A DNA stretch of 64,000 nucleotides, taken from NCBI GenBank assembly GCA_947631965.1, contig CANRNL010000006.1, positions 7,263 through 71,262 of the forward strand. Direction: 5' to 3'. The DNA comes from an uncultured Clostridia bacterium (GTDB lineage: Bacteria; Bacillota; Clostridia; Monoglobales; Monoglobaceae). The position numbers and the translations under genes were made by a program. Below, in pieces: positions 22,678 to 58,895 of this stretch (the first letter of the stretch is position 1; every line of letters begins with the position of its first letter). A model generated the notes under the pieces. It was not told where the DNA came from. It did no database searches and worked only from the letters and a program-made list of their open reading frames with translations.

Positions 22678-22730
22678 TGCCCGTTTTGCGGACGAGAAAA
22701 TGTGAAGATTTAAAATAGGAGGTTTTAAAA

Positions 22731-28385: not shown

Positions 28386-28441
28386 AGCAATCACCCTCTT
28401 GATTACATTTTTAAGATAGTTTCAGAATGTTTTTATGCCGA

Positions 28442-33531: not shown

Positions 33532-33543
33532 AGCCTTGTCCTC

Positions 33544-34014
33544 CTATTCCTCGGTGTAAATTTGGGTGACATAACCGGAACCCGCGCATTCGCGTCCTTT
33601 TATGACTGCCGACATACCGACGCGTATCGCCGTGTCGTTTGAGTTGACCGAACTCGCGCTTTCGGTACCCTCCGACATAAGAGTTACGATAATATCGTAT
33701 TTGTCCGGAATTTCCGTTTCGATAAACTTACCGCCCACTCCGTCGAACGAGTTTTGGGTCGCGGGTCTTACTTCGCTTTTTACAATGGTTGCGGGAACTT
33801 TTTCCTTTTCTCCGACAGTCACCTTTTCGCCCACGGCAAATCGGTCGGTCATATATTCCTCGCACTCGGTAATGTCAACATCATAAAAGATTTTAACGCT
33901 TTTGTCTGTAGATGTGACTTCCGAGCGGTTGCTAAGGAACATAAAGCCTGCCGCGCCCACCGCCAGAATCAGCAGTATTATTATCGCGTCGATAACATTA
34001 AATTTAGCCTTCAT
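33544..34014 (-). CDS. single-pass membrane protein, DUF4330-like (copy 1)
   Basis: MKAKFNVIDAIIILLILAVGAAGFMF followed by an ectodomain. Its start overlaps the GT4 stop by 4 nt. Confidence 0.65.
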   Translation of the reverse strand: MKAKFNVIDAIIILLILAVGAAGFMFLSNRSEVTSTDKSVKIFYDVDITECEEYMTDRFAVGEKVTVGEKEKVPATIVKSEVRPATQNSFDGVGGKFIETEIPDKYDIIVTLMSEGTESASSVNSNDTAIRVGMSAVIKGRECAGSGYVTQIYTEE

Positions 34015-35168: not shown

Positions 35169-37096
35169 CCGCGTTCACCGCCAATCCTTCTTTTTTCGGG
35201 TTTCCCGTTTTCAATCTTGCAGTTTTCTTTCGCAATATTAACGCCGACCGAGCCGAGCGCGATAACCATCCAGAAAATCATAAATACACGGTAGTTATAG
35301 AAGCAGTTGTCAAACATTCCCTGCAGCAGAAAACCGCTGACCGCGGAAGCGATAGCAACAAGCGCCGTTGCGACCGGCGCACCCTTTCCGCCCGCGGGGC
35401 GGTGTGCCGAGCATATCTTTTTAAAGAAGAAGAACAGCAAAAGCAGAAATACCGCCGTTCCGACTATTCCCAGTTCCACGGTAATTTGCAGGAACAGGTT
35501 GTGAGAATGGGGCGCGACTACCGCGTTATACGAATAAAACGGATAAACCTCGGTGAACGCGTCGCTTCCCATACCTATACCCGATACGAAAAAGTCTTTG
35601 AGCAACGCGAGAGTGCCCATCCAGATATACACTCGGTAAGAGGTGGACGAGTCTTTCATATTGCCTATGCTCGTAAATCTGCTGATTATGCTTTCGGGAA
35701 TTATGAACGGCAGAATCGGGAGCGCGATAAGCGCCAGACCCCACAGCTTACCCGCCGCAAAGGTGATAAATACCGCCGCGCTCGCCATAAAGCCTATCCA
35801 GCAGCCGCGCGACATTGTGAGAATAAGCGCCGCAAAGTCCACGCAGAAAATCGCCGCGTATAAAAGGCGCGGCAACGCCTTTTTGTTCGTGAAAAACAGT
35901 GCGGCGGTAATCGGAATAACCAAAAGTATGTATTCTCCGAGGACGTTCGGGTTTCCGAGCGTCGAGTAGATGCGCATTTTAAGTTCGGAAAACATACCCT
36001 CGTCCAGCCACGACTGAGCAATATCCCAGCCAAAGACGTACTGCGCGATGCCGTAGGCGCAAACGCAAAATCCCGATATTGCAAACACCGTGAGCAGGTC
36101 GAAAAACTGCTTTTTGCTTTTAACCGTGTTTGTGATAACAAAGTAGAACGCCATAAACACAAAGTATATTGCGAAAATTTTAAGACTGCTTTCGGGAGCA
36201 AACGACAGCACGCCCGAAATAAGGTAGAGCGCGAGCATAGCGACAATTAGAAGCCCTACCGCGTCGAATTTCCACACGAATTTTTTAGTGGTAAGCGCGC
36301 GTATTATCAGCGACGCTATGCAAAGGAGCGCAAGACCCGCCATTGCCATTGTCGGAAGAAGCGGAGCAAAGAACACCGCCGCAAACACGCCGACCTCAAC
36401 CTTATACAAAACAAGGAATACCGCAAACGAACCGACCAGGAACGCCGCGCCGTACAGCGGGGAGAAAAACGCCGCGATAAACGCCGCAGCCGCGCCGAAA
36501 AATATCGCTGCGGGAACTCTCTTTTTGGAAAGGCATCTCGATTTATAAAAAAAGTCAAATGAAAATTCGGTGCCGAGAGCGTACTCTATAAAGCGGACGA
36601 GCAGCGAGCCCTTGAAGAACTCGGTCACGTTTACGCCGTCTATAAAATACAGGATAACGCCGATTGCCACTCCGACGAGAGCAACAAGCGAAAAAGTCCT
36701 GCCCGCCAAAAGTCCGAAAATTATGTAAAACACCGAGCCGGATGCGCACAGCGTACCTATAAAACGCAGATTTAAACCGAGCAGATTGTGGAGATACAGC
36801 TTGCACAAAAGCACAAAACCGCTGTTTTCCACGAGGTCGTTTGCGCCGTCGCCGCATTTTTTGCCGACAAAGCTCAAAAACGTAAACACAGAGCGCGCGG
36901 CGCGTCCGAAAAGGCTCTGAGATATGCACTCGGCCGAAAAATGCTCTTTTCGGAACAGGTTTGTTATTAAGCTTTGCTGCCACTTACGCGAAATAAAGTC
37001 ATACACTCCGCGCACGGCTTTATAGATAAGGCTGTTTCGAATTATATTCAGGATGAAAAACCAGGCTGCCTGAAAATATCCAATCTGTTTGTCCAT
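35165..37096 (-). CDS. O-antigen ligase/polymerase-like (Wzy_C domain) membrane protein, unusually long (643 aa)
   Basis: More than 12 TM segments. Wzy_C-like core LTMSRGCWIGFMASAAVFI ... PHSHNLFLQITVELG. 4-nt overlap with the GT4 gene. Confidence 0.8.
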   Translation of the reverse strand: MDKQIGYFQAAWFFILNIIRNSLIYKAVRGVYDFISRKWQQSLITNLFRKEHFSAECISQSLFGRAARSVFTFLSFVGKKCGDGANDLVENSGFVLLCKLYLHNLLGLNLRFIGTLCASGSVFYIIFGLLAGRTFSLVALVGVAIGVILYFIDGVNVTEFFKGSLLVRFIEYALGTEFSFDFFYKSRCLSKKRVPAAIFFGAAAAFIAAFFSPLYGAAFLVGSFAVFLVLYKVEVGVFAAVFFAPLLPTMAMAGLALLCIASLIIRALTTKKFVWKFDAVGLLIVAMLALYLISGVLSFAPESSLKIFAIYFVFMAFYFVITNTVKSKKQFFDLLTVFAISGFCVCAYGIAQYVFGWDIAQSWLDEGMFSELKMRIYSTLGNPNVLGEYILLVIPITAALFFTNKKALPRLLYAAIFCVDFAALILTMSRGCWIGFMASAAVFITFAAGKLWGLALIALPILPFIIPESIISRFTSIGNMKDSSTSYRVYIWMGTLALLKDFFVSGIGMGSDAFTEVYPFYSYNAVVAPHSHNLFLQITVELGIVGTAVFLLLLFFFFKKICSAHRPAGGKGAPVATALVAIASAVSGFLLQGMFDNCFYNYRVFMIFWMVIALGSVGVNIAKENCKIENGKPEKRRIGGERG

Positions 37097-37135
37097 AATA
37101 TCTTTACCTCTTTATTTTTTTGCTCTTTGTTTTTG

Positions 37136-38716
37136 TTAATTATCCTGCGCGCCTTTGCCGAAAAATTCCCGTATTGACGCACATTCGTCGGTTTTTAAAA
37201 TAAATGTCGTAATTAAGTATATCACAAGAGCGGGCGCGGACGCAATACAAAGTTTTAAAAGCAGTAACAAAAATGTATTTGCGAAAATTCCGTCCGCCCA
37301 AACATATATCAACTTTGCCGCCGCAAACGCCGCCGCCGCGCAAATCAGGGTCTTTGCCATATTGATTATAAAATGCGCCGTTATCACGCCGGGCTTGCGT
37401 TTGTTTATCATAATTACCAGCATGGCCGCTATCGCGACAGAGCTTATTGCGCTCGCAAGCGCAAGTCCGCCGATTTGCATATTCAGTCCGCGTACCAGAA
37501 GCAGAGCCGCCGCGAAATTGACCAGAATTCCGAAGATAGAGCTGAGCATCGGCGTTTTGCCGTCCTCAATCGCGTAAAAGCTCTTGTTCAGAACCTCACA
37601 CATCGCGTAGCCGACCATACCGAACGAGTAAAAGAAGAGCGCCTCGCCGGTTATGCTCGCGTCGCTCGCGTTAAAGCTGCCATGCTCAAAAACCACCTTG
37701 ATTATCGGGTTTGCGAGGGCGAGAAACAGCGCCGAAACAAAACCTATGATGAATACCACCCAGCCGATTGAGACGCGCGTTGCTTCGGCAAAGCCGCTTC
37801 CGTCGTCGTCGGATGCGGAAAGGCGGGAGAGCTTCGGAAATATAAAATTGGTTATTGCGTATGCAAAAACTCCTACCATTATAATATATATCTTGTACGA
37901 CCAGTTAAGCCCCGAAACTATACCGTCTCCCATCTCGGAGCCGAAGCGCATATTTATTATACTGCAAATCGGGTTTACCCACGAGCTTATCAGCACGGGC
38001 AGAGCGAGCTTCGCCGCGTCTTTTATTCCGCTGTCCTTAAAGTTCAGCTTAAAACGGTAACGGAAGCCCTTTTTCGCAAGCGAGGGTATCTGGATGAAAA
38101 ACTGCAGCGACCACGCGACAAGCATAGAGATTATCACGCCCTGCAAACCGTACTTGTTTCCGAACAAGGCAAGATACAAAATCATTACCATATTTGAAAC
38201 AAGGCTTATGAGCGAGGGTATCGTAAATTCGCCGAACGACTGCAAAAAGCCGACCGAAACGTATGCCATTGTGGTAAATATAATCGAAGGGAAAAGTATT
38301 TTAAGGAGCGCGCCCGTCTGCGCGACCTTAGCCGCGTCGTAGCCGGGAGCCATAATATGCACTATCGGGTTTGAGAAAATCATACCCAAAAGAGCCGCCG
38401 CGCCCGCAATGAGAGTGACTATCGTGATAAAGTTGTTCGCAAAGTCCATCGCACGCTCCCGTCCTTCGCGTTCGAGCCGTTTGTTGAAAACGGGTACAAA
38501 GGTCGACAGTATTGCGACGCCGAGCGTCATATCGAAAAACAGGAGCGGGATCTGAGTGGATGTGTTTATAATATCCGCCGCCTCGCCTTTGCCGTAAACC
38601 GCCGCAATCATAGTTTCGCGCAGGAGCCCCGCAAACTTTGCAACAAATATTATAACCGCCATAATGCTTATGGTCTTGACCGCCTTCTTTTGCGTAACCT
38701 CACCCAAAATAATCAC
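37136..38716 (-). CDS. murJ: lipid II flippase MurJ (MviN family)
   Basis: 526-aa polytopic protein. VAKFAGLLRETMIAAVYG, followed by the typical MurJ helix pattern. The exact start is uncertain (GTG 38716 or a nearby TTG). Confidence 0.88.
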   Translation of the reverse strand: MIILGEVTQKKAVKTISIMAVIIFVAKFAGLLRETMIAAVYGKGEAADIINTSTQIPLLFFDMTLGVAILSTFVPVFNKRLEREGRERAMDFANNFITIVTLIAGAAALLGMIFSNPIVHIMAPGYDAAKVAQTGALLKILFPSIIFTTMAYVSVGFLQSFGEFTIPSLISLVSNMVMILYLALFGNKYGLQGVIISMLVAWSLQFFIQIPSLAKKGFRYRFKLNFKDSGIKDAAKLALPVLISSWVNPICSIINMRFGSEMGDGIVSGLNWSYKIYIIMVGVFAYAITNFIFPKLSRLSASDDDGSGFAEATRVSIGWVVFIIGFVSALFLALANPIIKVVFEHGSFNASDASITGEALFFYSFGMVGYAMCEVLNKSFYAIEDGKTPMLSSIFGILVNFAAALLLVRGLNMQIGGLALASAISSVAIAAMLVIMINKRKPGVITAHFIINMAKTLICAAAAFAAAKLIYVWADGIFANTFLLLLLKLCIASAPALVIYLITTFILKTDECASIREFFGKGAQDN

Positions 38717-42384: not shown

Positions 42385-45225
42385 ATGAAAGGCATTAAAA
42401 AAGTTTTGAGCGTTGTTCTCGCAGTCGCTCTGCTTATGACAAGCCTTGTTGTAACCGCTTCGGCAAGCGCGTTCCCCGACGTTGACGACAACGCGAGTTA
42501 CGCAAACGCGGTTTCGGTCCTCAGCAAGCTCGGAATCATAAAGGGCTACGCGGAGGACGGCACGTTTAAGCCCGAGAACGACGTTACTCGTGCTGAATTT
42601 ACTGCGATGCTTATGAGAGTACTCAATGTTGCGCAGGACGACACAACCGTTTGGGCGGATTCACCGTTCTATGATTTGTCGGACGCGACATGGGCTATCG
42701 GAAATATCCGCACGGCTTACGGTATGGGTATTATCAACGGCTACGGAGACGGTACATTCAGACCGAACGACAATGTTAAGTATGAGGAAGCATTAAAGAT
42801 GATTGTCTGCGCCCTCGGTTACGGTCAGTATGTCAGCAACGACGGCGCTTCATGGTACACCGGATATTATACTCAGGCAATGACGCTCGGAATTACGAAC
42901 AACGTGAACGGTACGCTGGAAACCAACGCAACGCGTTCCTGCATAGCTCAGCTCATATTCAACTCTCTTGAGGTTGATATAATAGAGAACAACACCGTTT
43001 CGGGCAAGACGCTTTTGGACTATCTCGGTCTTATAAAGAACACGGGCAGAATTTCGGCGAACAACGACACAAGCATTAATTCGCCCGATGTTAACCTTGC
43101 GGCAAATCAAGTTGAGATTTACGCCAAGGATGAGGGTTCCTCGGAGTATACCACAAACGTATATACGACAGACGATACCAGCATAAAGAATTTGCTCGGA
43201 TATCAGGTAACTTTCTACTACAGGTTAAACCGCGGAACAAACGAGAGAGAGCTTATTCTCGCCGAGACGAGGTCGCCCAAGGAACTCACCATAGATGCTA
43301 ATCTTCTTGAGATTAACGACTCGACCAATACCTCGATTAGATATTATCAGGATTTGAACGCCGAAAGGACGTCGTCCGTTTCGCTTTCAAACGACAATAT
43401 AGTAATTTACAACGGTAAGCTCTACGGTGCGAACGCCGAGGCAAGCCGATTTACAAAGGATATGCTTCCCAAAATCGGAAGTGTAAGGCTTGTTGACTCC
43501 GGTTCGAGCGGTTCATACAATATGGTATTCATAGAGAGCTATATTCCCTATTATGTATCCTCCATATCGGCTTCGACCAAATCGATTACCGATACCCTCA
43601 CAAGACCCGCTACTTTTAAAGAAAAGACGGTGGAGCTTGACGAGGATTCGTCGGATTACACACTCTCTATCGTTGACGCGGACGGAAAAGCAATGAGCTT
43701 CAGCTCTATCTCAAGGGGCGATGTTGTAAACGTCAAGGAAAGCAGAAACGATAACGGCGGCACGGTTCTCAAGACCGCGGTCGTTACCGACGAAAAAGCG
43801 TCGGGCTCGGTTACTTCGATAAGCAAGGACGTTATTGTTGTGGGAGGAAAGGCTTATGATTGCTCGCCGTACGCTCCTTGGGAGATGTACGATTCGGCAA
43901 CGGCTACTCTTGCGGCTCCGTCGGTCGGCGACAACGCCACTTATTCGCTTGATATAAACGGAAACATTTTTGCATATGAAAAGACCGCGACAAGCAGCAA
44001 CGTATCTTACGGATACATTATGGCGGTCGGCACGGGAATGGTTGACAATGTGGACACGCTCCGCATTTATATGCTCACCATGTCGAGCAAAAAAGAGGAG
44101 ATGGACGTTTACACGACTTTGAAGCTCAACGGCAAGTCGTATAAGCCGGCGTCTCAGATGAACGAAATCCTCGACGCGCTTGCGCTTTCGGCAGCCGACC
44201 AGAATCAGGATGTCGGCGCTTCGGGTGCGCAGTACACCCAGCTCGTTAAATATGAAACGCGTTCCGACGGCAAGATAAGCAGTATTGTTACCGCGAATTT
44301 GGTATCTCAGCCCACGAATATAACTACCGATTCGCTTTCGCTCTATGATGGAATCGGCGGCGTTTCGATGTCCTGCAACTCGAATAAGCAGCTTTCGGGC
44401 AACGGCATCACGATAAGCACGAGTAGCGCGGCGGTATTCGTTGTTCCGACGAACAGACAGGATTTTGATTCTTATAAAAAGTCGTCCTCGACAGAGTTCA
44501 AAAGCGGTAACTCTTATGCAATTGATGCGTATGACCTTTCTTCGAGCAGAAGCGCGGCGGCAATCGTTCTTTACGGCAAGGATGCTTCAGAGGCGGTTGA
44601 TACCGAAACGCCCGTATATCAGATTTCCGAGGTTTACTCGACGTCTGTTGACGGCGAGACCAGAATGAAAGTAAGAGGAACGATGTTCAGGTCAGGTTAC
44701 TCATCCGGCACGACAGACTTTGATGAGATTGTTTCAACAAGGTCTGAAAGTTTGGTAGAAGACCTTTCGGAAGGCGACCTTGTGAGATTCGGCAGCGATA
44801 CCGAAGGTTATCTCTCGCTTGAAAGTGAGGATATACTTTGGACAAACGGTCAGGACGGATATATTACGGTGGAGGACTCCAATCCGGCAGTAGACCCGTA
44901 TTCGTCCGAGTTTGTCGCGATATACGGCAGCGTTCTCTATGCCGACAGCGGAGACGATATAGTTCTTACCAAAGAGCTTATTAACGGAAGCTACTCCGGC
45001 GACAAGGAATACACGATTGCAAGAAACGATTTCTCCTCTGCAAAAGCGTTTATCTACAGATTGGATAATAACGGCAGAGTTTCGGAAATAATTGAAGAAG
45101 GCAGTGACTTCCTTGACCTGCTTTCGCCTTACGGCAACGCGGAGAACTTCGACCCGAGCAAGGTCTTTGTATATATGTCGAAGGGCAGAGTTAAGGCAGT
45201 CGTGATATTTGAATATGAATATTGA
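42385..45225 (+). CDS. S-layer-like surface protein: signal peptide, three N-terminal SLH repeats, roughly 750-aa unknown region
   Basis: Signal peptide ending TASASA; FPDVDDNASYANAVSVLSKLGIIKGY..VTRAEFTAML and two further SLH repeats. Paralog of 2636..5641 and 53049..55991. Confidence 0.9.
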   Translation: MKGIKKVLSVVLAVALLMTSLVVTASASAFPDVDDNASYANAVSVLSKLGIIKGYAEDGTFKPENDVTRAEFTAMLMRVLNVAQDDTTVWADSPFYDLSDATWAIGNIRTAYGMGIINGYGDGTFRPNDNVKYEEALKMIVCALGYGQYVSNDGASWYTGYYTQAMTLGITNNVNGTLETNATRSCIAQLIFNSLEVDIIENNTVSGKTLLDYLGLIKNTGRISANNDTSINSPDVNLAANQVEIYAKDEGSSEYTTNVYTTDDTSIKNLLGYQVTFYYRLNRGTNERELILAETRSPKELTIDANLLEINDSTNTSIRYYQDLNAERTSSVSLSNDNIVIYNGKLYGANAEASRFTKDMLPKIGSVRLVDSGSSGSYNMVFIESYIPYYVSSISASTKSITDTLTRPATFKEKTVELDEDSSDYTLSIVDADGKAMSFSSISRGDVVNVKESRNDNGGTVLKTAVVTDEKASGSVTSISKDVIVVGGKAYDCSPYAPWEMYDSATATLAAPSVGDNATYSLDINGNIFAYEKTATSSNVSYGYIMAVGTGMVDNVDTLRIYMLTMSSKKEEMDVYTTLKLNGKSYKPASQMNEILDALALSAADQNQDVGASGAQYTQLVKYETRSDGKISSIVTANLVSQPTNITTDSLSLYDGIGGVSMSCNSNKQLSGNGITISTSSAAVFVVPTNRQDFDSYKKSSSTEFKSGNSYAIDAYDLSSSRSAAAIVLYGKDASEAVDTETPVYQISEVYSTSVDGETRMKVRGTMFRSGYSSGTTDFDEIVSTRSESLVEDLSEGDLVRFGSDTEGYLSLESEDILWTNGQDGYITVEDSNPAVDPYSSEFVAIYGSVLYADSGDDIVLTKELINGSYSGDKEYTIARNDFSSAKAFIYRLDNNGRVSEIIEEGSDFLDLLSPYGNAENFDPSKVFVYMSKGRVKAVVIFEYEY

Positions 45226-45411: not shown

Positions 45412-45498
45412 GCCGCTGTGATGGAATTGGCAGACGTAGCGGACTCAAAATCCGCCGGTAGCGATACCGTGCCGGTTCGACTCCGGCCAGCGGCACCA
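45412..45498 (+). tRNA. tRNA-Leu (anticodon CAA), type II, encoded CCA
   Basis: Acceptor GCCGCTG/CAGCGGC; anticodon stem GCGGA/TCCGC with loop CTCAAAA; long variable arm CGGTAGCGATACCGT; T arm GCCGG-TTCGACT-CCGGC; 3' ACCA. Confidence 0.9.
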
Positions 45499-45910: not shown

Positions 45911-46376
45911 GCGGAGCGTGGGCATTGCGGGCGAACAAGGTTCGCTCCCTACATCGTCGCGACACGCCCTTTTTGCTTGCTTTGCCCTATTCGGGCAAAG
46001 TCGCGCTTTTGAGCGGTCGCTCCTCTCCGACAAAAATCTGTGGATTTTTGTCGGTTAAAATAAATAAATTGTCCCCATTTGGTTGTACGGGACGGCGCCC
46101 TCGACGTCCCGTGCCCGCGCGGAGCGCGGGCATTGCGGGCGAACAAGGTTCGCACCCTACATCGTCGCGACACGCCCTTTTTGCTTGCTTTGCCCTATTC
46201 GGGCAAAGTCGCGCTTTTGGGCGGTCGCTCCTCTCCGACAAAAATCTGTGGATTTTTGTCGGTTAAAATAAATAAATTGTCCCCATTTGGTTGTACGGGA
46301 CGGCGCCCTCGACGTCCCGTGCCCGCGCGGAGCGTGGGCATTGCGGGCGAACAAGGTTCGCCCCTACATTGTCGCA
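45911..46376. repeat. tandem repeat, 208-bp unit, about 2.2 copies
   Basis: GGCATTGCGGGCGAACAAGGTTCGC starts at 45921, 46129 and 46337, an exact 208-bp period. By eye, units 1 and 2 differ at about three positions. Each unit holds at least five hairpins. Confidence 0.95.
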
Positions 46377-46611: not shown

Positions 46612-46640
46612 TTGACAAATGGATATTTTAATTATATAAT
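46612..46640 (+). promoter_or_regulatory. promoter (TTGACA - 17 bp - TATAAT) with a roughly 90-nt leader for the giant SLH-lyase operon
   Basis: Consensus hexamers at 46612..46617 and 46635..46640. RBS AGGAGG before ATG 46739. Confidence 0.65.
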
Positions 46641-46738
46641 TGTATATGTATGAAAATAGGTGTTGTATGTATTCGACTATATACAACGTCTGTATTTGTT
46701 TTGTAAAATTATATAAATTTATAATAGGAGGTTACATA

Positions 46739-49700
46739 ATGAAAGGGAAAATGAGCAGAAGTTTATTTTCACTGATACTCGCTGTTTGCTTTATGCTTCA
46801 GGGCGTTTATGTTACGGCGTTTGCCGATGACGCGCTCTCTGCCGAGGAACAGCAGGATGAGCAGGAAGTCTCATTCGCTGTCGATTCAAACGGTGAGTAT
46901 GTTGAACTTGGCGACGATTTCGACTATGATGCCGAAACGCAGGGAGGTTTTGAAGAGGTCGACAGCGAGGCGTTCTTTGATTACAGCGGCGATGTAAGTC
47001 TCTTCGACGCCGATACCACCAAGGGTACGCTGGTAGCGTCCGCCAACTTTCAAAATTCGGCGGTAGGAGATACGGCGGTTGACGGTTGGCTTTTTAACTG
47101 CGTTCCGGAAGAAGGAGGAAACGCGAGTACCATTCAGGTAATCAGCGACACCGAAAACGGTGGCAACGTACTTGAACTGTCAAAGAAAGCCAACGGGGTT
47201 AAAAACGGTGATTATGCTGCCGGAGACGAGCGTGTATCGGCGGAATTTCCGATTGAGGGCGTTTCGGGTAAGATTGTCATTGTTGCGGAAGTGAAGATGA
47301 CCCAGACCGGTCGTCTCGGTATGTACACGTTCTCGTCTATTGACGAAACGACCGGAGTGCCGGCATATGGCGGACGTTTTTATTCGTGGGATACAGCTGC
47401 CGAAAAAGCTGACCCCACTAAAACAGAGCCGCTCAGATATACCGCTTATGATAGCAAAAGCACCCCAAATAAGGTTGAGAGTACCACCAGCCCCAAGAGT
47501 AAGGACTCTTCGGCGAAAATGACCAAGAACAAGTGGTACACTTGGCTGTTTGATATGGATTATGACAACGGCACTTATGATGTTTATATAGACGGAGAAT
47601 GTTTGTTTGAGGGACTTGGAATTACCGGCTCTCAAAACGGCTTCGGCGGTGTGGGCTTTGAAATTCAGAACGATATAAAGTCACTCGGAACCATGCTTGT
47701 AGGCTCTTTTGCCGTTTACGATATGAACGAGGCGGCTCAGAACGATGAGAATGCAAACGCGGATGCTGCGGCTTTGCAGCTCGGTATTGACGCAAACATG
47801 GTTACCGAAAGCTTTACTGTTCCCACAAGCGGACAGTACAACAACTCGACGATTACATGGGAGTCGTCTAACACGGCGGTTGCTTCTATAGTTCCGCGAG
47901 ATGATAAAACGGCTCTTGTTACGATTACCAGACCCGAATACAGCGGCGCCGGAAAAGTCAATGTAACGCTTACGGCAAACGTTGCGAGCGGCAAATCGGT
48001 CGTTCAAAAACATTTTACCATTACGGTTTACGAAAAGGAACCCGAAAATGATGGAGATAGGGTTCAGGTTGACGTGGACAGTCTTTCGCTTCCTCCTTCG
48101 GTGCAGGGTAATATTACCGAAGGCTTTACGGTTGACACGAAAGGCGCTGTTTGCGGCTCCGAGATTACCTGGGAATCGTCAAATCCGTCTGTCGTTTCGG
48201 TAGACAACGCTACCGGCAATGTTACGGTTACACGTCCGCCGTTTGACGGCAACGGCACGACTGTGGTCACTCTTACCGCTACCGTAAAGAGCGGCAGTGC
48301 AAGAGTTACCAAGACGTTTACGGTTACGGTTGTTCAGCTTGACCCCGCCAACGACACCGAAAAGGCACAGTATGCGGCGAGAATGTTGTTTATCGGCGGT
48401 ATCGATGAGGACAACATCAAACTTGAGAGCTTCTATCTTGCGGACACCGGACTTTATGATTCGTCAATTTCATGGGTATCCTCAAATGAGAAATACATTG
48501 AAATAGATAACAATTATGAGGAAGACCCGGAAACCGGAAATCAAACTCAGGTTGATGGCTACAGAGCGAAGGTTACCCGTCCTGCGGTAGGACAGGCGCC
48601 TGTTTCGGTTACTCTTACGGCTACAGTAAATGTAAACGGGGAGATTTCAACAAAGGATTTTGTACTTATGGTACAGCCGGAAGACCAGCTTAAAGCATTC
48701 CCCGGTGTTGAGGGTTACGGTGCATACTCAACAGGCGGCAGAGGCGGCAGAGTTTACCATGTTACCAACCTTAACGCAACGGGCGAAGGAAGTCTTACTT
48801 ATGGTATTGAGGAGCTTAAAGGTCCCAGAACGATAGTATTTGATGTTGCGGGCGTTATAGATATGACGAAGCGCGGCGCAGGAATCAAGTTCAAGGGTGA
48901 GCAGGGCTCCAATGTAACGGTTGCGGGTCAGACCGCTCCGTTCCCCGGAATAGAGCTTAAAGGCTACGGCGTTACTTTCTCGAACGTACATGATGTAGTA
49001 TTCAGAAATATAAGAATTCGTATAGGCGACACCAAGCCGGATAATGACGTTTATCAGGAAGACCCGATGAGCATAGGAAACTGCCGTGACTTGGTAGTTG
49101 ACCATTGCACGATGCAGTGGGCGATAGATATGTGCTTCCGTGCAACGGGTTCGGACGTTACTTTGTCGAACATAATATTCGGCAAGTCGCTTCTTGAAAA
49201 CTCGCCTCACGAAAAAGGCGGTCACGCTTACGTCGGAATGATAAACGAGGGCGCGAGCAAGATTTCGTTCATTAAGAACTTCGTCGGAGACAGTACACAG
49301 CGTTCGCCGCGTATTACCGACGCCGACTGGATTGACGCATACAACAACGTCCTCTTTAACTCCGGTAACGGCTTCGATATTTACAACTACGAGTGGCAGG
49401 ACAAGAACTCGAAGATGAACGTATATAATAACTACGCGAGAAAGGGTCCGAACGTATTGAACGGTACACCGTACCGTGCGGGCCGCGGACGAAACTACTC
49501 CGGCGGCGCGATGGTTTACTTCGTTGAAAACTATGGTCAGGGCTCGAATGACACTCTCCAGCAGACCGCTACAAACGAGAACACTTCTTTTGCTAAGGTA
49601 CTGTATTTCGGTCAGGAAAATACGAGCGCGGGTGCAGCGTATGACCTTTCAAACGTAACGCTTGATGAGTGGAACAACAACCCGCTCTCATATGACAACA

Positions 49701-52700
49701 ACAACAAGAGTCAAAGCGCGGCAACTCTTACTTATATGAATTATCCGTTCCCCGCGCCGCGCGGCTATGTTCTGCCCGGCGACAAGGACAGCCTTATGAG
49801 CTACGTTAAGAACGACCGCGGCGACGGTCGTACGATGGGCGCGACCAAGCCTACGCGTGACTTATACGACCAGATGATAATTCAGGAAGCTCGCTCGGCA
49901 AGCTCCAAGGCAAGCTTGGACGAGTCGGTTACAAGCGCATACTTCCAAAAGTTAGAGGACAGAACGGGTCTGGATTACAGTAATTTCAAGACCGCAAGAA
50001 ACTGGACGGTAAGACAGGGCGAAGGTCCCGTTAAGACCGGAGCGACGTCGAAGTATACAGAACCGGTTTACTGGGATAATTATCTCGACGTTAATACAAA
50101 GACCAACTCTGCGGCCAAGAGCACATACACATATACAACCGATTTTGAAATAGGCACAAGCTGGTGGGGTGAGTTTACCGGCTATCCCGGAATGGATACG
50201 GTTTACTCGTTCAGCGACGGAACCCGTCTTGTGGAATATTCGGAGAGTCAGCTTGCGGCGATGGCTGAAGCAGCGTATGAAGCGGCTGTTCCCGAGGCTG
50301 AGAGAAACGACGAAGTGAGAGCGGCGTACATTGCCGAGTATTGGCAGAACTTCAACAAAACATTCGGTACGCACATCAGTGATGACGGCGCTATCTCGAC
50401 GACCGACAGCGGACTTAAGGGAATAGACACATCATATGTTACGGTTTACAGAACCATTACCGACCTCTATCCCGAAAGCTACTACGATAAATTCAGAGAA
50501 GATTATCCCGCTGAAGCGGCTGCTATGGATAACTACCGTATCCGCAACTACCCGAAGGCTCCGAGAACGCTGGAAGAAGGTCGCTTGGAAAATAGCAGTA
50601 AACTGCCTCTGAACTATCAGATAGTTTGGGATTCAATGGGCGACGGTATTCCGGACTGGTACAAGGAGTTCAAGGGCTGGCCGACAAATCAGGCTCTTAA
50701 TAGGATGATAGACCCCGAAACGGGTTACACCTATCTTGAGATTTACCTCGCATTTGCGGCAGGCGACAAAGAGCTTGAAACAGACGATACTCCGGCTTCT
50801 ATTGAGAACTTTAAGTACAATAAGCTCGGTTATTCGACGGTACAGCTCTTCTGGAACACCGATTACAGAACATCGTGCGTTATAGAGTACGGTACCGAGC
50901 CGGGTAACTACACCCATTCGATACCGCTCGAATATACCGATGCGACAGACTATTATCATACCTATCACGCAATTACTCTCAGCGAGCTTGAACCGGACAC
51001 CACCTATTATTATAAGGTAACTGCGGTTGACGAGCTGAGTAACGTGACTGTTGCGGAGTATGACCCAAGTGATGATACGGAAAAGGCGATGACCTTTAAG
51101 ACCACGATAGCTCCCGAAGGCGCGGAGGGCATGGTTCCTTCAAAACCTGCCATTACAAGTACGGTTCCTTACCTCAACCAGGTAAGACTTAACTGGGAGG
51201 GCGACGTTGCGACCGATACGGGTTATGAAATATACTATGATACAAAGAGCCATAACGGTATTATCGGAGATTATGCAAACTCGATAACCGGTCTTTCGGC
51301 TCAGACCTATAAACAGATTGTAACCGGTCTTGAAAACTACACGCCGTACTACTTTGTGGTAGTTGCAACGAATGCAAACGGCAAGACGGCTTCGGATGAA
51401 GTTGAGGTTACGCCTACCGGAACACTCTTCAGCTACGATTTCGATAAGATGACCCCCGAAGAGAGGGCTGCGTTTGAAAAGAGCCAGTATATGTATGTAC
51501 TCGGCGGCTCGATGTCGATAAAACCCGATCCCGATACCGGCAAGTATGTTCTTGAAATGCTGGACGATACGAACAGCCACGGCGTTAACACCAAGTGGAG
51601 CTTCCCGGTTACTCAGACCGATAAGTTTACAACGACGGTTAAGTTCAAGATTATGTGGCAGAAGCAGACCGATAACCTCAACTATCAGAATGGTATTGAC
51701 GAGGTTGCAACTAACTTGAAGAATACGTTCCAGTTCAACTTCTATATGGATTCGAACGTGAATGAGGACCTTGATTCGTCGGATGCAGGTCTTTGGGACA
51801 GTGCTTTCAACGTATACTTTGAGGGAACTTCCACTCCGTTGAGCATTGATTCCGCCGGACGAAGAAACGGTACTACCGACACCGGAAGAATAACATTCTC
51901 CAACCACGAAATCGGAACATACACGCCGGGCAGAACCATCAAGGGTACCGAAGGCGGAATTCTGCCGACCGGAAAGAGCTATCCGAGAACTACGGCTTAC
52001 GGCGACGGTGTTTACAGCGCCAAGCCGGACAATAGCGACAAGACGTTGCAGGGCGTTTGGTACTATGAACCGAACTCTTCACAATATATGACCCTCAAGG
52101 TCGTAACCGACATCGAACAGAACAACGTAAGAGTTTTCCTCGACGATAAGCTGCTCTATGCACAGGGCGAGTTCAACGAAGACCTTGAAGAGCCTTACAA
52201 TATCGGACGTTTTGAGATTAAATCGCGTAACGACGGATATTCGTGGGTAGATGTTGCAAGCGTTTCAATTGTCGGCGGCGAAGACAGCGATTCCGATAAC
52301 ACGGGTGGCAATAAGATTCCGCCTGTTATTGTTCCTGCTGATAAGGGCGGCGGCACCGGCGGCGGCAGTGCTGTCGGCAGCGGAACGGTTGCTACTCCGA
52401 GTCAGTCAAGCGAACCGAGTCAGTCAAGCGAACCAAGCACATCGGCTGACCCGAACGCATCTAATGCTCCGACCACAGCTCCCGATGTAAATTCGGCTGA
52501 CGACTTCACCGACCTCGACGGTTCCGAATGGGCAAAAGAGGCTATTGACGCACTTGTTAAGGACGGAATAGTACAGGGAACCGGCGACGGCAAGTTTGAG
52601 CCGAACCGCGAGGTTACCCGCGCCGAGTATATCTCGATGCTTATGCGTACAGTTCCCGACATGGAAGTAGATACATCAAGCGTAAGCGGCTTCAGCGATG

Positions 52701-53062
52701 TAGGTGACGGCGACTGGTATCACGACACAATTTACCGCGCATCTGCGCTCGGTATTGTAAACGGTGTGGGCGACGGCAGCTTCGGCGTTAATGAGCCTAT
52801 ATCCCGTGAGGATATGATGGTTATGGCGTCCAGATTTATGGATGCTACCGGCGTGCAGGTAGAGGCTGTACGCGAGATGGATGCATTTACCGACAGCGCT
52901 GAGGTAAGCGATTACGCAACTCAGGCTATTGAGAAAATGTACTGTGCAGGTATTATTAACGGTATGGGCGACGGAAAGCTTGAGCCTAAGGGTGTTGCGA
53001 ACCGCGCGCAAGCCGCGAAAATAATTTATGAAATTATGGGAGGTAACAATGATGAGAAGTAA
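46739..53062 (+). CDS. 2107-aa multidomain surface protein. Domain order: signal peptide; acidic region; LamG-like module; 3 short Ig-like repeats; PL1-like pectate-lyase beta-helix; unknown region; 2 FN3; second LamG-like module; Ser/Pro linker; 3 C-terminal SLH repeats.
   Basis: The start is moved to MKGKMSRS after AGGAGG. The lyase region reads [33 protein letters not shown]...[13 protein letters not shown]...STQRSPRIT...AYNNVLFN. The Ig-like repeats are of the ITWESSN...VTLTATV type. FN3 region: [22 protein letters not shown]...[11 protein letters not shown]. The SLH tail reads [42 protein letters not shown], followed by further repeats. Confidence 0.88.
   Translation: [2107 protein letters not shown]
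52400..52435 (+). repeat. 18-bp in-frame tandem duplication in the Ser/Pro linker (SQSSEP x2)
   Basis: AGTCAGTCAAGCGAACCG is followed immediately by AGTCAGTCAAGCGAACCA. Confidence 0.8.
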
Positions 53063-55991
53063 TGTCAAAAAGATATTCGCGTTTTTAATCGCGTTATCTA
53101 TGGTATTCACTATGTCAGCCGTGTTTGTATACGCGGCTGACGAGGAAGTGCCTGCAGCCGACGCCGCACCCGCGGCTTCGGCAGAGGCAACGGCTGTACC
53201 CGATACGGAAGCGGCACCCGAAGCATCGGAAGCGACCGATGAGACTGCGGACGCTGCCGTTACGGACGAAGAGGCGGAAGCTATTTCAGAGGTTCTCGGT
53301 ACGACCGAACAGGTTACAAATCTTCCGAGCCTTGATTTGGAATATGCTTCTGAGTACAGATTTGTAAACGCACTCGGTATATTTGAATTTCTTGATGAGA
53401 ATTTCTGGCAGACCGAGCAGGTAACTCGTGCGCAGTTTGCGACTATCGTTGCTAAGATGATTAAGGCGCAGACCGAAGGCTATCCGCTTTACGACGCTTC
53501 GCCGTTTATCGATATCGACAGCAGCAACTTTGCTTATCCGGCAGTATGCTTCCTGACCGATATAGGAATTATCAACGGCGACGGAAACTCAACGTTCAGA
53601 CCGAACGACGCTATCACGGTTGCAGAGGCTACCAAGATGATTATGTGCGCTCTCGGATACAAAGAGGCGGCTGAAAACTATGCGGGCGGTTATCCCATGG
53701 GATACATCTCATACGCACAGATTTACAACGTATATGACGGACTTAACATTGCGGCAGGCGCTACCATTGACGCGCTTACAACCGGTAAGCTCGTTAAGAA
53801 CGCTTTGAGAGCGGAGCTTCTTGAAGGTGTTGTTTATACTCAGAGCGGTGTTGAGTACACATTTACCGGCAAATCGCTGCTGTCACAGACCTACAAGGTT
53901 GAGCAGGAGCACGGTATTGTAAACGGAACATATTATGCATATATTAACGACAACGAGATTGCCGAGAAAGACGAAGTTGATATTGCAGGTTCGATTTATC
54001 AGGTTGCGGAAGGAATCGACCCCGAACAGTACCTCGGTTATATAGTTGATTATTACTATATGACGGACGTCACCGGCGCAAAGCGTTATATAATTATTTA
54101 TATGGAGCCCAGAGAAGGACAAAACTCCATCGTAACAATTAACGCTCAGGATATATACAAGTTTGACAATAACCAAATAACCTATGCCGATGCAAAAACC
54201 AACAGAGAAAAGAAGATAACCGTTACAGAGAACACGGTTGTTGCTCTCAACGGTCAGCCTTATTACACCTATGCACAGGAAGACCTTAAACTAAAAGAAG
54301 GAAATATGACCATTATTTCTCATCACTCTCATGTCGGCGATGCTGATGTAGTACTTATTAACGAATTCTACGACGGCATTGTTGAGAGAGTTGCAAGCTC
54401 AAGCAAGCAGGTTATCTTTAAGAATAATTCGGGTGCATCGTCGACGCTCAAGCTTCCTACCCTTGTTCTCGACGACGAAGACGATTCTTACAGAGCAAGA
54501 CTTACCATGAACAATCAGGACGTTAAAGCGGACGACCTTGTAAAGGGCGATGTTATCACATACACCGTAAGCAAGGACGGAAGATATATCCGCGGATATG
54601 TTTCCAAGGACGAAGTTTATGATGTGGTAAAAGAAATAAAAACCGAAAAGACCGCGGCAGGCGAAGTTCAGAAGATTAAGGTTGGAGACGGTGAGTATTA
54701 TGTATCGAAATATTGTGTTGCAAATATCACCGCGGGAGCAACGCTTGACTTTGTAATCAGCTTTGACGGCAGAATTGTCGGCACAAAATCGACCGCGGCA
54801 AACGGCGGAAACTATGCGTTCCTTATTGCGGCAAGTATGGATTCCGACGAGTTTGACGACGCTCAAATTAAACTGAAGCTGTTCACAAAAGACGGCGAAG
54901 TTAAGATTTTTGACGGCGCTGACAAGATTAAGTCGAACATCGGCAACGAAATCAGAAATTACAAGGCTTCGGAGATTGTGGAACGTGCTAACGCATTTGC
55001 AAATCCGACACTGATTGTTTATGAGACAAACAGTGCGGGTCTTATCAAGACTCTCTATGTACCTGCCGACTACACTACGTCTTATAATCCGTACGACGAG
55101 CTTGGCTTCGGTAAGTATTATGAGAACAAGAGCGCAAGACTCAGCAACAGAATTATAGGAACCTGCGCTATCGACGACAGCACGGTTATCTTCAAGGTTC
55201 CGCTTATTGACAGAAATCGCGAGAGCGACTATCAGGTAACCGATATGGAAAGCCTTGAGAATGGCTCGTACAACGTTCAAATCTATGACATCGACAGAGG
55301 TATTGCCGGTGCTATGGTAATAACATACAGCGATGCAAGTTCATTGAGCGATACGGCAAATGTTCTTGTTGTTGATGAACTTATTACATCATATAATCCC
55401 GATACCGAAGAAACTCTTACTCAGATTAAGGGCTTCTCGGGCGGCAAAGAAGTAACATACACGATTGATGAGGATGTTACTATGTCCAGTACGGGCGGCG
55501 GTATAAATATACCTACGCTGATTACTGATGTTGAGAGGGGCGATGTAGTTCAGTATACTCTCGGCTCAAACGACTACATCAGTATTTACAGAGTGCTGTA
55601 TGATTACGGCAACGATGATTACAACTACTATTTCGAGTTTGATGAAGACTCTCAAGTGCGTGAGGTGCTTCCCAACAGCGATTTCTACGAAATATACGGC
55701 GAAATATTTGATGTATATGACTTCTATATACTTGTAAGCTCAAGAGTTGTCGGTAAGGATTACTGTGAGGTTGCTACTGACGGTGCTAAAAAAGATGATC
55801 CGGTAGTATTTACTGATGAGCTTAAATACAAGAAGGCTATTCCGACGACTAACGCAAACATCTATCAGTATGATGTTGAGAAGGATGAGCTCACGCTCTG
55901 CGACCAGTATGAGATTGAGCCGGAAAGCAAAGTATTTATCCATACCAAGAATATTGATGAGGTTGTGGACATACTCGTTATCAAAGAGTAA
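53049..55991 (+). CDS. S-layer-like surface protein: signal peptide, acidic/Ala-rich spacer, three SLH repeats, roughly 700-aa unknown region
   Basis: ATG 53049 lies 5 nt after GGAGG and overlaps the upstream stop (53060..53062) by 14 nt. Signal peptide MMRSNVKKIFAFLIALSMVFTMSAVFVYA. Third paralog of 2636..5641 and 42385..45225 (shared GIINGDGNSTFRPND..KMIMCALGY..GGYPMGY). Confidence 0.88.
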   Translation: MMRSNVKKIFAFLIALSMVFTMSAVFVYAADEEVPAADAAPAASAEATAVPDTEAAPEASEATDETADAAVTDEEAEAISEVLGTTEQVTNLPSLDLEYASEYRFVNALGIFEFLDENFWQTEQVTRAQFATIVAKMIKAQTEGYPLYDASPFIDIDSSNFAYPAVCFLTDIGIINGDGNSTFRPNDAITVAEATKMIMCALGYKEAAENYAGGYPMGYISYAQIYNVYDGLNIAAGATIDALTTGKLVKNALRAELLEGVVYTQSGVEYTFTGKSLLSQTYKVEQEHGIVNGTYYAYINDNEIAEKDEVDIAGSIYQVAEGIDPEQYLGYIVDYYYMTDVTGAKRYIIIYMEPREGQNSIVTINAQDIYKFDNNQITYADAKTNREKKITVTENTVVALNGQPYYTYAQEDLKLKEGNMTIISHHSHVGDADVVLINEFYDGIVERVASSSKQVIFKNNSGASSTLKLPTLVLDDEDDSYRARLTMNNQDVKADDLVKGDVITYTVSKDGRYIRGYVSKDEVYDVVKEIKTEKTAAGEVQKIKVGDGEYYVSKYCVANITAGATLDFVISFDGRIVGTKSTAANGGNYAFLIAASMDSDEFDDAQIKLKLFTKDGEVKIFDGADKIKSNIGNEIRNYKASEIVERANAFANPTLIVYETNSAGLIKTLYVPADYTTSYNPYDELGFGKYYENKSARLSNRIIGTCAIDDSTVIFKVPLIDRNRESDYQVTDMESLENGSYNVQIYDIDRGIAGAMVITYSDASSLSDTANVLVVDELITSYNPDTEETLTQIKGFSGGKEVTYTIDEDVTMSSTGGGINIPTLITDVERGDVVQYTLGSNDYISIYRVLYDYGNDDYNYYFEFDEDSQVREVLPNSDFYEIYGEIFDVYDFYILVSSRVVGKDYCEVATDGAKKDDPVVFTDELKYKKAIPTTNANIYQYDVEKDELTLCDQYEIEPESKVFIHTKNIDEVVDILVIKE

Positions 55992-56008
55992 TAAAACGGT
56001 TTGATTTT

Positions 56009-56042
56009 GCCAAAGCCGAACGTTATGTGTTCGGCTTTTGGC
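56009..56042 (+). terminator. strong hairpin between operon genes (partial terminator or RNA-processing/stability element)
   Basis: GCCAAAGCCGAAC-gttatgt-GTTCGGCTTTTGGC. There is no clean downstream U-tract, so termination is uncertain. Confidence 0.45.
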
Positions 56043-56082
56043 AGAATTAAATAAGGTTTTAAAAGCGAACGGAGGTTTGGAA

Positions 56083-58809
56083 ATGATAAAAAAATGCAGG
56101 TTTTTAGCCGGCTGTTTGACGCTTTCAATGATTTTTGCAAGCGCGGTACCCGCCGTTTTCGCGGAGGATGCGGCTGTGTCTGAGGACGAAACGACGGTTG
56201 TGGAAGCGGTAGATGAAATCTCTGACGAAGCTGTCGTTGATGAAGCGGTCGTTGACGAGAGCGAGGAAGTTGACGTCCTTTCGGAGGACGATGCGGATGT
56301 TTCGGTAGCGGCTGTTGATTACAGCGCGTGGGTTAAGGGCGATGCAAATGCTAATGACAACAGTCCCGGCGCTATCACGCCGAACGTTGAGTATAACGGC
56401 AAAGACGCGCTCTACATTGAAAACAGAAACGCATACACCGTTTTCCCTGAGCCTGTTACGGAGGGCAAAGTCACCTTTTCGCTGGATTTGTATCTCGAAA
56501 AGGGCGCAAGAAACTTCAGAGTTTATTTTGAAAATGCAGAGTCAACCTATACTAATAAAGACAATGTTTTTGCCGAGGTTATAAACAACGACAAAGAGGG
56601 CGCTGTTTACTTCGGACCCACGACTGAAGCTCATACTGACAACGCGCACAAGCTGTTTGACATTACGTCGGACGGCTGGTATCACTTTGATTTGGCTCTC
56701 GATTACGGTGAGCTTCAGGACGGCAGCGTTAGTGATAAATTTATCACAATAAATGCGACCGACGCAAACGGCAATCCGATGTGCGAAGAAATGACCATCG
56801 GTGCAATCAGCGGCAAAGATGTTTCTTTGAAGTCAATTCGTATAGTAAAGACCGTGAGCGGACTTTATGCCGCTAATATGACAATAGAGCAGGGCGGCGA
56901 TATGATTTTTGCCGAGAGCAGCAACTTTGCGGATGCGGAGCTTGGCGATAGCAATATCCCCTCTAACTGGACTATATCGGCGGGCGGCAACAATAAGGGC
57001 GAAATAGTTAATGATGACGAAAAGGGTCACGTCCTTATGCTTCAAAAGAATTATGACGACGATGAGCAGACAACTTCGAAAAGCGCTGTGTTTGCAAGAT
57101 ATAAGCTGAACAAGACTTACAGCGGCAATACCGAGATTGAGGCTGATATTAAGCTTACTTACGGCGGCAGAATCGGTATGTTCGCGGCAAGTCAGTCAAG
57201 CGAGACAAGCACATCTACTCTTTCCCCGAGACTTTTTGCTTGGAGTGATAATGATTTCCCGAGTATTTGCAATCACTATGAGGCGTATAACCCGACGAGC
57301 GCATCTTCGTCTAACAGAAATAAGAATAACGCGGTTCCTCCGATGAATACGTGGACGACATGGAAATTTGTCATAAACGGAAACGCGCTTACCTATGATG
57401 TATATATCGACGGTAATTTGATGTTCGAGGGGTTGAACGCGCAAAGTGATATGTTCAACGGAAATGTAGGTCAGGTAGGCTTCCAGATTCAGAGTGCGGA
57501 GGGTACTCTCGGAACCATTCTTGTTTCGGAAGTAAGAGTTTATAACGACTCTATTGTTGACCCCGAAAAGGAAAAGGCAAAAATCAACGCTGCGCTTGAC
57601 GGGATAACTCTTCCGACCGAGACAGCGGGTGAAGACATCATACTTCCCACTCAGGCGGCAGGACACGATATAGTATGGACGTCAAGCAATCCCGATGTTA
57701 TAGCTAATATCGGTGGTATCGGACGCGTTGTTCGCAAGGACTCCGTTATAGGAGACGTAGAAGTAGTTCTCACGGCTACCGTAACATATGAGGATATGAT
57801 TATCACGCGCGAATTTACGGTTAAGTCGATAGACAACCGTGACACGGATTCGCTTGTTAAGTCGCAGATTTTGACCGACCTTATGGACCTTGGTCTTACC
57901 AACGGCGAAACTCTTTACTCTGATATAGAGCTTCCCACCGTCGGCAGAACTTACGGCACGAAGATTTCCTGGATAACCAGCAACGCGTCGGTTATCTCGG
58001 CAAAAGGTAATGTTAAACGTCCTAACGTAATCGGCGCAAAGACGGTTACGCTGACCGCTGTCGGTGAGCTTGAAGGCACTAACGGACCCGTTAAGGAAAC
58101 ATATGCTTATACATTTAAGGTTGTCGGCAGAGGTTCGAGCAGCGTATCGAGCGGAGGCGGCGGAGGCGGATTTGTTGCCTATTCGCCGGGAACACCAACG
58201 AGCAACACCACTTCCACGGCTGCGCCGTCGGGCAACACGACGGACGAAAACGGAAACGGTACACAAGGCACGAGCAGCGTCGGATTTACAGACCTTGACA
58301 ATGTCGGCTGGGCTCAGGAGGCAATAGACTATATGTTCTCTAAGGGCTATGTTAACGGCGTTGGCGACGGAAAGTTTGCTCCGAACGATGCGGTAACGCG
58401 TGAGCAGTTCGTTAAGATGCTCGTTAACGTATTCGGTCTTGAGGCGGCTTCCGACAGTGCGGCATCGTTCTCGGACGTACAGCCCGGAGCTTGGTATGCA
58501 GAGTATGTAAATATTGCGGCAAGCCTCGGAATTGTTTCGGGTATGGGCGACGGCAGTTTTGGCGTAGGCACTCCGATTTCAAGACAGGATATGGCGGTTA
58601 TGATTGCCCGCTGCACCAATGTTGAGGGCGGCGACGCGGCAGAGTTCGCGGATGATTCGGCTATTTCCGACTATGCGGCGGACGCGGTACACGCTATGAA
58701 ATCGGCAGGTTATATTTCGGGCGACGAGAAAGGCAACTTCAACCCGAAGAACACCGCTACCCGTGCAGAAACCGCAACTGTTCTTTACAGAATTTCGGCA
58801 GGCAAATAA
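56083..58809 (+). CDS. 908-aa surface protein: signal peptide, acidic spacer, two LamG-like modules, two short Ig-like repeats, Gly/Ser/Thr linker, 3 C-terminal SLH repeats
   Basis: The start is moved to MIKKCRF after GGAGG. The module ending [53 protein letters not shown] parallels [50 protein letters not shown] in the 2107-aa protein. SLH tail: [42 protein letters not shown]... Confidence 0.88.
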   Translation: [908 protein letters not shown]

Positions 58810-58856
58810 ATTTTAAACCGATATTTTGTGATTTTTGCAAATCATAATTAAATTAA

Positions 58857-58895
58857 AGAGAAGCGTCACTTTGACGCTTCTCTTTTGCTTTTTTG
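58857..58895 (+). terminator. rho-independent terminator
   Basis: AGAGAAGCGTCA-ctt-TGACGCTTCTCT followed by TTTGCTTTTTT. Confidence 0.85.

Follow-up and report, generated by a model that had tools for sequence, protein, structure and literature searches.

Gene 1 and gene 2 of a surface-protein locus in an uncultured Clostridia bacterium (Monoglobaceae) form a conserved pair that likely provides the cell with a wall-anchored pectate/pectin lyase and an S-layer-type partner protein. The window, a stretch of 64 kb (contig CANRNL010000006.1, positions 7,263 to 71,262), is part of an 87.9-kb contig of a metagenome-assembled genome (MAG). Three large genes follow each other on its forward strand, and typical signal peptides are visible at the N-termini of all three products, comprising amino acids (aa) 1-29 in the gene 1 product. 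Gene 1 codes for a giant multimodular protein with a beta-helix of polysaccharide lyase family 1 (PL1) type and C-terminal SLH repeats, gene 2 for an S-layer-type protein and gene 3 for a further SLH protein (Table 1). The conserved transcription unit consists of two genes, gene 1 and gene 2. We consider it likely that the gene 1 product is a highly expressed lyase of PL1 subfamily 2 (PL1_2), cleaving homogalacturonan-type pectin at the cell wall and made together with the gene 2 product, with gene 3 supplying an accessory glycan binder.

Table 1 Features of the lyase locus; positions refer to the window
Feature	Position	Strand	Remarks
Sigma-70 promoter	46612..46640	+	TTGACA-17 nt-TATAAT; 12/12 consensus match
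Leader, ~90 nt	46647..46738	+	A/U-rich stem-loop 46656-46693 near 5' end; AGGAGG 46726-46731
Gene 1, predicted secreted SLH-anchored multimodular PL1_2 lyase	46739..53062	+	2107 aa; ATG 46739, stop 53060-53062
ConA/LamG-like beta-sandwich module (sub-threshold), shared with gene 3	47021..47758	+	gene 1 aa 95-340
Three aBig_2 (atrophied bacterial Ig) repeats	47759..48682	+	gene 1 aa 341-648; PF20578 E 1.4e-39, 3 stretches
PL1 subfamily-2-type parallel beta-helix	48686..49618	+	gene 1 aa 650-960; D775, D788-H789, D797, H829, R855-x-P-R858
Conserved, mostly helical lyase-module extension	49619..50773	+	gene 1 aa 961-1345
Two FN3-type domains	50792..51418	+	gene 1 aa 1352-1560; PF16656 33.5 bits vs cut-off 30; PF00041 sub-threshold
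Conserved module (C-module), no family match	51425..52279	+	gene 1 aa 1563-1847
Three SLH repeats	52493..53047	+	gene 1 aa 1919-2103; PF00395 E 1.4e-35, 3 stretches
Gene 2, S-layer-type protein	53052..55991	+	979 aa; same as publicly called gene
Long hairpin 3' of gene 2	55999..56052	+	-38.3 kcal/mol, z -7; then only four U
Gene 3, SLH protein	56083..58809	+	908 aa; specific to this genome
Intrinsic terminator 3' of gene 3	58855..58885	+	bidirectional; 14-bp stem + T-run

The beta-helix of gene 1 was assigned to PL1 by sequence comparisons. Against the PDB sequences, the best match was PfPL1 of Pseudoalteromonas fuliginea (9buj, E 1.6e-30, across aa 650-905), followed by the Vi-antigen depolymerase VexL (6fi2, E 1e-4); no further PL1 structure was matched. 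The best NCBIfam match was the PelZ model (E 2e-30). PF00544 was missed by the Pfam scan of the full-length protein and exceeded its cut-off of 24 with 28 bits when the beta-helix segment was scanned alone. Within PL1, the domain appears closest to subfamily 2, the similarity to VexL (PL1_13) being 26 orders of magnitude weaker. The alignment placed R855-S-P-R858 on the R-x-P-R motif of PfPL1 (SRTPR, with Arg220) and VexL (QRNPR). In PfPL1 the first Arg of this motif, Arg220, abstracts the proton as base, as does the first Arg of the motif in VexL, and catalysis has been proposed to be metal-independent in PL1_2 as in VexL (PMC11229556). Conservation was assessed with 90 PL1_2-type sequences from Bacteroidota, Verrucomicrobiota, Planctomycetota, Acidobacteriota and Bacillota; as this set had been gathered by two motif patterns, conservation within the motifs is circular, that of the remaining positions independent. 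Gene 1 retains essentially all positions conserved to at least 85% in this alignment, among them D775, D788, H789, W794, D797, H829, R855 (99% conserved) and N869, and these eight residues are invariant in nine gene 1 orthologues. In the alignment, the residues of the acidic vWiDH region, to which Ca2+ or substrate binding is ascribed in PL1 (D775, D788-H789, D797), are present and family-conserved. Because all family-wide conserved active-site residues are kept, the objection that the catalytic Arg might be lost on proper alignment fails, and the lyase domain looks active. The pectate-lyase-type beta-helix had been recognised in the first-pass annotation, and the peptide motifs quoted there are present verbatim.

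A perfect TTGACA-17-TATAAT arrangement occurs at two sites in the window vs zero expected by chance; the other site precedes a tRNA-Leu(GAG) (region 14276-14414), thus the gene 1 promoter is of tRNA-promoter quality. The element is conserved: TTGACT-17-TATAAT was present in four of five relatives, equally far from the start (-114 to -118) and with a leader of equal length. By itself, the stem-loop of the leader was not significant (z -1.6). Each relative has a hairpin at the matching leader position, five sequences giving no clear covariation signal, and an Rfam scan of the locus found no known RNA. The ATG of gene 1 lies 7 nt downstream of AGGAGG; the length of the product, 2107 aa, is that given in the first-pass annotation. 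TTG 46640, the start of a longer in-frame open reading frame (ORF), was rejected, being located inside the promoter/leader and lacking a ribosome-binding site. The start codon of gene 2 lies within the final codons of gene 1, with an overlap of 11 nt and GGGAGG at 53038-53043 (alternative ATG codons at 53028 or 53049), in agreement with the translational coupling suggested earlier.

Comparison with related loci defined the extent of the unit. Full-length gene 1 orthologues, with 44-74% identity, were found in Monoglobus-like MAGs only, and cluster look-ups revealed no named protein among them. Orthologues of gene 1 and gene 2 are direct neighbours, in this order, in all loci examined (L001-L004, L006-L008, L085-L087), and the two genes overlap by 8 nt in all loci with gene calls (L001-L004, L085-L087). 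Directly 3' of gene 2, a canonical terminator of GC hairpin and U-run was present in five of five relatives checked, and no gene 3 orthologue was found downstream of the pair in relatives; gene 3 is a singleton cluster. Because the relatives terminate after gene 2 and lack gene 3, the pair represents the ancestral unit. In the window, the hairpin after gene 2 can be taken for a weak or incomplete terminator. Gene 3 lacks an evident promoter, and the only ~30 nt between the hairpin and its ribosome-binding site leave no room for one. Gene 3 is a later addition which duplicates the binding arm of gene 1 (ConA-like module plus aBig_2) and is probably expressed by read-through. The first-pass annotation had described a single operon of three large genes behind one consensus promoter with a leader of about 90 nt. 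Genes, promoter, leader and the hairpin that separates gene 2 from gene 3 were recovered; the single three-gene operon was not supported, with gene 3 unconserved and located behind a terminator-like hairpin.

The downstream flank of the pair differs between window and relatives. After gene 2, the seven loci with gene calls share a conserved set of two HGD-D/DUF2229 genes, BcrAD_BadFG and TSCPD, a 2-hydroxyacyl-CoA-dehydratase-like activator system. The window has at the corresponding place gene 3 and, after it, genes for an aminotransferase (convergent) and an AsnC regulator, a sign of local rearrangement. The upstream region was visible in six loci (L001-L004, L007, L008): in all of them the pair is located downstream of a U32-peptidase gene and an S-layer-type gene resembling that at 42385 of the window, and an SLH-amidase gene upstream of the pair was seen also in L001.

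Aa 1100-1500 of gene 1 had been described as a stretch of several hundred residues lacking a recognisable domain. This did not hold for the stretch as a whole, which resolves into a helical extension of the PL1_2 module, reaching to about aa 1345, and two FN3-type domains. About 340 aa of the extension are lineage-restricted. Many residues of the extension are invariant across orthologues, and it is predicted to be mostly helical, with pLDDT values of 70-87 reached at aa 1150-1340 only. An exhaustive HMMER search of 1.84 billion representatives retrieved the extension in just 14 clusters. Of these, 12 match beyond the terminal motif, being either short fragments or proteins of ~1300-2100 aa, and the remaining two match the last ~50 residues alone. 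By these matches, the ~340 aa after the helix appear confined to orthologues of the gene 1 product. The whole lyase-plus-extension module was present in only four genomes of the species-representative set: Candidatus Monoglobus merdigallinarum, an uncultured Monoglobus sp. and the Clostridiales MAGs UMGS491 and HRGM_Genome_3419. The end of the extension, IVWDSMGDGIPDWYKE...YTYLEIYL (DGIPDWYKE...YLEIYL), is common to the extreme C-termini of Bacteroidota PL1_2 proteins. We read aa 961-1345 as an expanded, lineage-specific form of the C-terminal adornment of PL1_2 enzymes. That the DGIPDWYKE motif corresponds to the Ca-binding pseudo-EF-hand of PfPL1 we infer only tentatively, because a single-sequence PDB search with aa 900-1350 gave no match and the alignment of a Rikenellaceae PL1_2 protein, used as bridge, to PfPL1 ends at chain residue 364. 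In a Rikenellaceae MAG (L064, 9494-13113), a 634-aa FN3 + PL1_2 protein ends in DGDGMPDWFEKE...LEIYMHYL, the same as the extension motif; the next protein (554 aa) resembles by eye a fused SGNH esterase and pectinesterase.

The Ig-like repeats, FN3 domains and C-terminal SLH repeats expected in gene 1 were all found by Pfam, as were the Ig-like repeats (aBig_2, two) and the C-terminal SLH repeats (three) of gene 3. The product of the latter begins with a module of its own (aa 80-278), followed by the ConA/LamG-like module (aa 279-496), and contains no catalytic domain. LamG-like modules had been proposed for both proteins, and one module is indeed shared: blastp aligned gene 1 aa 101-530 with gene 3 aa 279-677 (E 1.8e-26, module plus following aBig_2 repeats), and hhalign related the modules with a probability of 99.6%. 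Its family matches were all sub-threshold: PF13385 in three of eight members (best E 1.5e-4), PF06439 with E 1.3e-4 and 22.5 bits vs a cut-off of 26.8, and PF14099 with E 0.009. These families, Laminin_G_3, 3keto-disac_hyd and Polysacc_lyase, are presumably members of the Pfam concanavalin-like clan. A profile search against PDB sequences gave no match for the shared module, and that of a 5.8-billion-protein index only one 171-aa fragment. A LamG-like affiliation at the superfamily level is reasonable but unproven. Two gene 1 orthologues (P0008 and P0009) lack the N-terminal shared module, as expected for an accessory binding arm. The two other modules were not demonstrably related to it. For the C-module of gene 1, no named family was matched, Pfam scans of all orthologous C-modules gave no consistent match and the PDB profile search was empty; the first module of gene 3 likewise matched no named family, and hhalign linked neither of them to the shared module (probability at most 16%). 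The linker of gene 1 before the SLH repeats contains an 18-bp tandem repeat encoding SQSSEP units (52397-52434). No dockerin or cohesin was matched in the three proteins (Pfam, E <= 0.01). Thus the description of the system as non-cellulosomal stands, since all three products are secreted SLH proteins without these domains.

In the gene 2 product, the signal peptide is followed by an acidic disordered linker, an SLH trimer (aa 90-255) and ~720 aa of small beta domains. The structure model, calculated with a 38-sequence alignment, had a mean pLDDT of 78.5. Pfam detects a single SLH stretch, but in the model the SLH trimer fold is complete; Foldseek aligned it to SpaA-SLH and Sap-SLH with TM scores of 0.64-0.78 normalised to the target. 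For the ~720-aa beta region, Foldseek retrieved no convincing PDB match. The linker (aa ~27-90, 53130-53320) comprises some 60 residues rich in Ala, Glu and Thr with pLDDT < 50. As annotated before, gene 2 is an N-terminal-SLH paralogue of two other S-layer-like genes of the window, 42385-45225 (E 4e-36) and 2636-5641 (E 3e-28). Its orthologue group comprised 29 proteins with 36-81% identity at E <= 1e-180, paralogues appearing only from E >= 1e-33. Gene 2 is therefore an orthologue group of its own, always located after the lyase, and not the stand-alone S-layer-type gene of the locus (42385-45225).

From these results, the following function is proposed for the core two-gene unit, which is conserved across Monoglobus-like gut Clostridia and would be strongly expressed. 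The gene 1 product would be secreted by the Sec system and held non-covalently on the secondary cell-wall polymer by its C-terminal SLH trimer. Its PL1_2 beta-helix would cleave homogalacturonan-type pectin by beta-elimination with Arg855 as base, and the ConA/LamG-like, aBig_2, FN3 and C-modules may serve as spacers or glycan-binding arms reaching out from the wall. As the start of gene 2 lies inside the final codons of gene 1, gene 2 is probably translated in step with gene 1. Its all-beta product, anchored by the N-terminal SLH domains, would most likely provide a local surface environment or scaffold beside the lyase. Gene 3, the recent addition, codes for a non-catalytic SLH protein, probably a glycan binder on the wall whose expression, via read-through of the hairpin after gene 2, would be lower. 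Pectin is the probable substrate because PL1_2 members are pectin-active, the lineage is a pectin specialist, and KduI and another PL1 gene are located near the gene pair in related loci. Characterised members of PL1_2 act on pectin, homogalacturonan or apiogalacturonan (PMC11229556), and for M. pectinilyticus an abundance of PL1 and CE8 has been reported (PMC12163728).

Several observations weigh against this assignment. The second catalytic residue of the PfPL1 paper, Arg235, falls on no Arg in the printed alignment, therefore only R855 can be firmly equated. The AlphaFold2 model of aa 640-1345, based on a nine-sequence orthologue alignment, had a mean pLDDT of 46.6, too poor for active-site geometry, and Foldseek retrieved with it a sole, weak match to 9buj; fold and geometry of the lyase region thus derive from sequence alignment. 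The CAZy subfamily was set by best match only. Genes for pectin uptake or catabolism were not found within the 64 kb of the window, and the surroundings of the pair are of envelope type (SLH-amidase, U32 peptidase, SLH-M13 peptidases, MurJ, Wzy_C and GT4). CsaB is the pyruvyl transferase required for canonical SLH ligands, and no CsaB or PF04230-type protein was seen among the scanned ORFs of the window. Internal promoter-like sites with a 10/12 match are present at 52929 and 55531. The conserved coupling of the two genes strengthens the idea of a functional link. Somewhat doubtfully, gene 2 may be seen as a dedicated lattice or scaffold subunit, made in fixed proportion with the lyase and co-assembling with it into enzyme-bearing S-layer patches; contact would then be made via the lineage-restricted 340-aa extension or the C-module. 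If true, such a patch would be a previously undescribed polysaccharide-degrading surface machine free of cohesin and dockerin.

The envelope neighbourhood raises the question whether the lyase acts on an anionic surface polymer of its own cell or of a neighbour (capsule, extracellular polysaccharide or secondary wall polymer), the pair serving envelope maintenance and not nutrition. To the envelope genes named above belongs also the probable main S-layer gene; the position beside amidase, U32 peptidase and S-layer genes is kept in relatives, and VexL, the second PDB match, is a PL1 enzyme trimming the Vi antigen capsule. However, the similarity to the pectin-active PL1_2 enzyme is far stronger (1.6e-30 vs 1e-4), pectin is the speciality of the lineage, carbohydrate-binding-module-like and spacer modules typically occur in enzymes that harvest nutrients, and the relatives carry KduI and a further PL1 gene close by. 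We regard a role in envelope maintenance as unlikely. A loss of cleavage, with the gene 1 product acting mainly as an adhesin or lectin and its beta-helix still binding galacturonan, could be read from the share of non-catalytic residues (~1,400 of 2,107) and from the failure of Pfam to detect the lyase domain in the full-length protein, but is highly improbable given that all family-wide active-site residues are kept and are invariant among orthologues with 44-74% identity.

The first-pass annotation had combined all three products into a capture and degradation complex, possibly integrated into the S-layer lattice. An obligate three-protein complex of this kind, encoded by a single operon, would agree with the one strong promoter, with none evident for gene 3, with the same orientation of all genes and the one clear terminator after gene 3, and with the module common to genes 1 and 3. 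Yet all related loci lack gene 3 and terminate after gene 2, the cluster of gene 3 is a singleton, and in the window a hairpin of -38 kcal/mol stands between it and gene 2. We judge the obligate complex improbable, and a three-product complex or an integration into the lattice purely speculative. A wall-anchored pectin lyase paired with an S-layer-type protein is preferred.

Characterised systems resemble parts of the locus. PfPL1, PelZ and BT_4115/4116/4119 belong to CAZy PL1 subfamily 2, like the gene 1 beta-helix by its best matches. About 255 residues aligned with PfPL1, including the GG-R-GG-VY-V N-terminal cap, DH-C...W..D and R-x-P-R, and both enzymes have a helical C-terminal adornment after the beta-helix. 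In PfPL1 this adornment has ~125 aa, in gene 1 ~385 aa, of which ~340 are lineage-only. PfPL1 is a 436-residue single-module enzyme from a Gram-negative pectin locus, in contrast to the SLH-anchored 2107-aa protein. VexL (Achromobacter denitrificans) shares the parallel beta-helix and the R-x-P-R motif, but is a periplasmic single-domain enzyme whose substrate is the capsule of the producing cell. Sap (B. anthracis) and SpaA (Paenibacillus alvei) have, as the gene 2 product, an N-terminal SLH trimer followed by a long multi-domain beta region; unlike in these proteins, the post-SLH domains of gene 2 match no solved S-layer structure. Cellulosomes and the SLH-anchored glycoside hydrolases of thermophilic Clostridia, such as the multidomain SLH enzymes of Caldicellulosiruptor, are, like gene 1, very large multimodular polysaccharide degraders on the Gram-positive wall, whereas gene 1 lacks dockerin and cohesin, codes for a predicted lyase instead of a hydrolase and is paired with an S-layer paralogue. 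SLH-tethered pectinases are reportedly the published model for M. pectinilyticus, a member of the same lineage that is said to place PL1-type pectinases on SLH instead of using cellulosomes or polysaccharide utilisation loci (PULs).

Further surface-related genes are present in the window. On the minus strand, upstream of the SLH-amidase and the U32 peptidase, a cluster at 33028-38716 comprises two tandem DUF4330 genes, a GT4 glycosyltransferase, a Wzy_C/O-antigen-ligase-like protein and MurJ; the wall polymer to which the SLH domains bind may be synthesised by this cluster. Three tandem paralogues of ~775 aa each (17969-25061) are SLH-anchored M13 (neprilysin-type) metallopeptidases, adjoined by a 1082-aa S8 subtilase on the minus strand (25146-28394). 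The M13 and S8 genes are a second, proteolytic set of wall-tethered hydrolases. Between the S-layer-type gene and the gene 1 promoter, a non-coding gap of 1.5 kb contains a tRNA-Leu(CAA) (45412-45498), a 208-bp tandem repeat (45911-46375; 2.2 copies, 97% identical, with internal palindromes) and further 30-nt repeats at 45548, 45843 and 46414. The inserts of relatives in this gap vary and include a 1350-aa SLH/Flg_new protein and an SNF transporter.

The gene pair is an uncharacterised addition to the SLH-anchored pectinases of Monoglobus: a solid annotation that fits existing belief and comes as no surprise. The coupling of gene 1 and gene 2, the 340-aa extension and the orphan C-module were not found described in the literature searched, which did not include the genome paper of M. 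pectinilyticus. As the idea of SLH-tethered pectinases is already known for Monoglobus, the locus adds detail and testability but no new principle. Few Firmicutes, Monoglobus among them, open up dietary pectin in the colon of humans and animals. To our knowledge, the retention of pectinases on the Gram-positive surface without cellulosomes or PULs is known only in outline. For this question, the locus presents a concrete target across the Monoglobus-like genomes found: a giant protein of PL1_2 lyase type, encoded behind a consensus promoter and always accompanied by a dedicated S-layer-type partner. In addition, the locus yields two sequence-orphan modules; what they do might account for the range of substrates or for the organisation of the surface.

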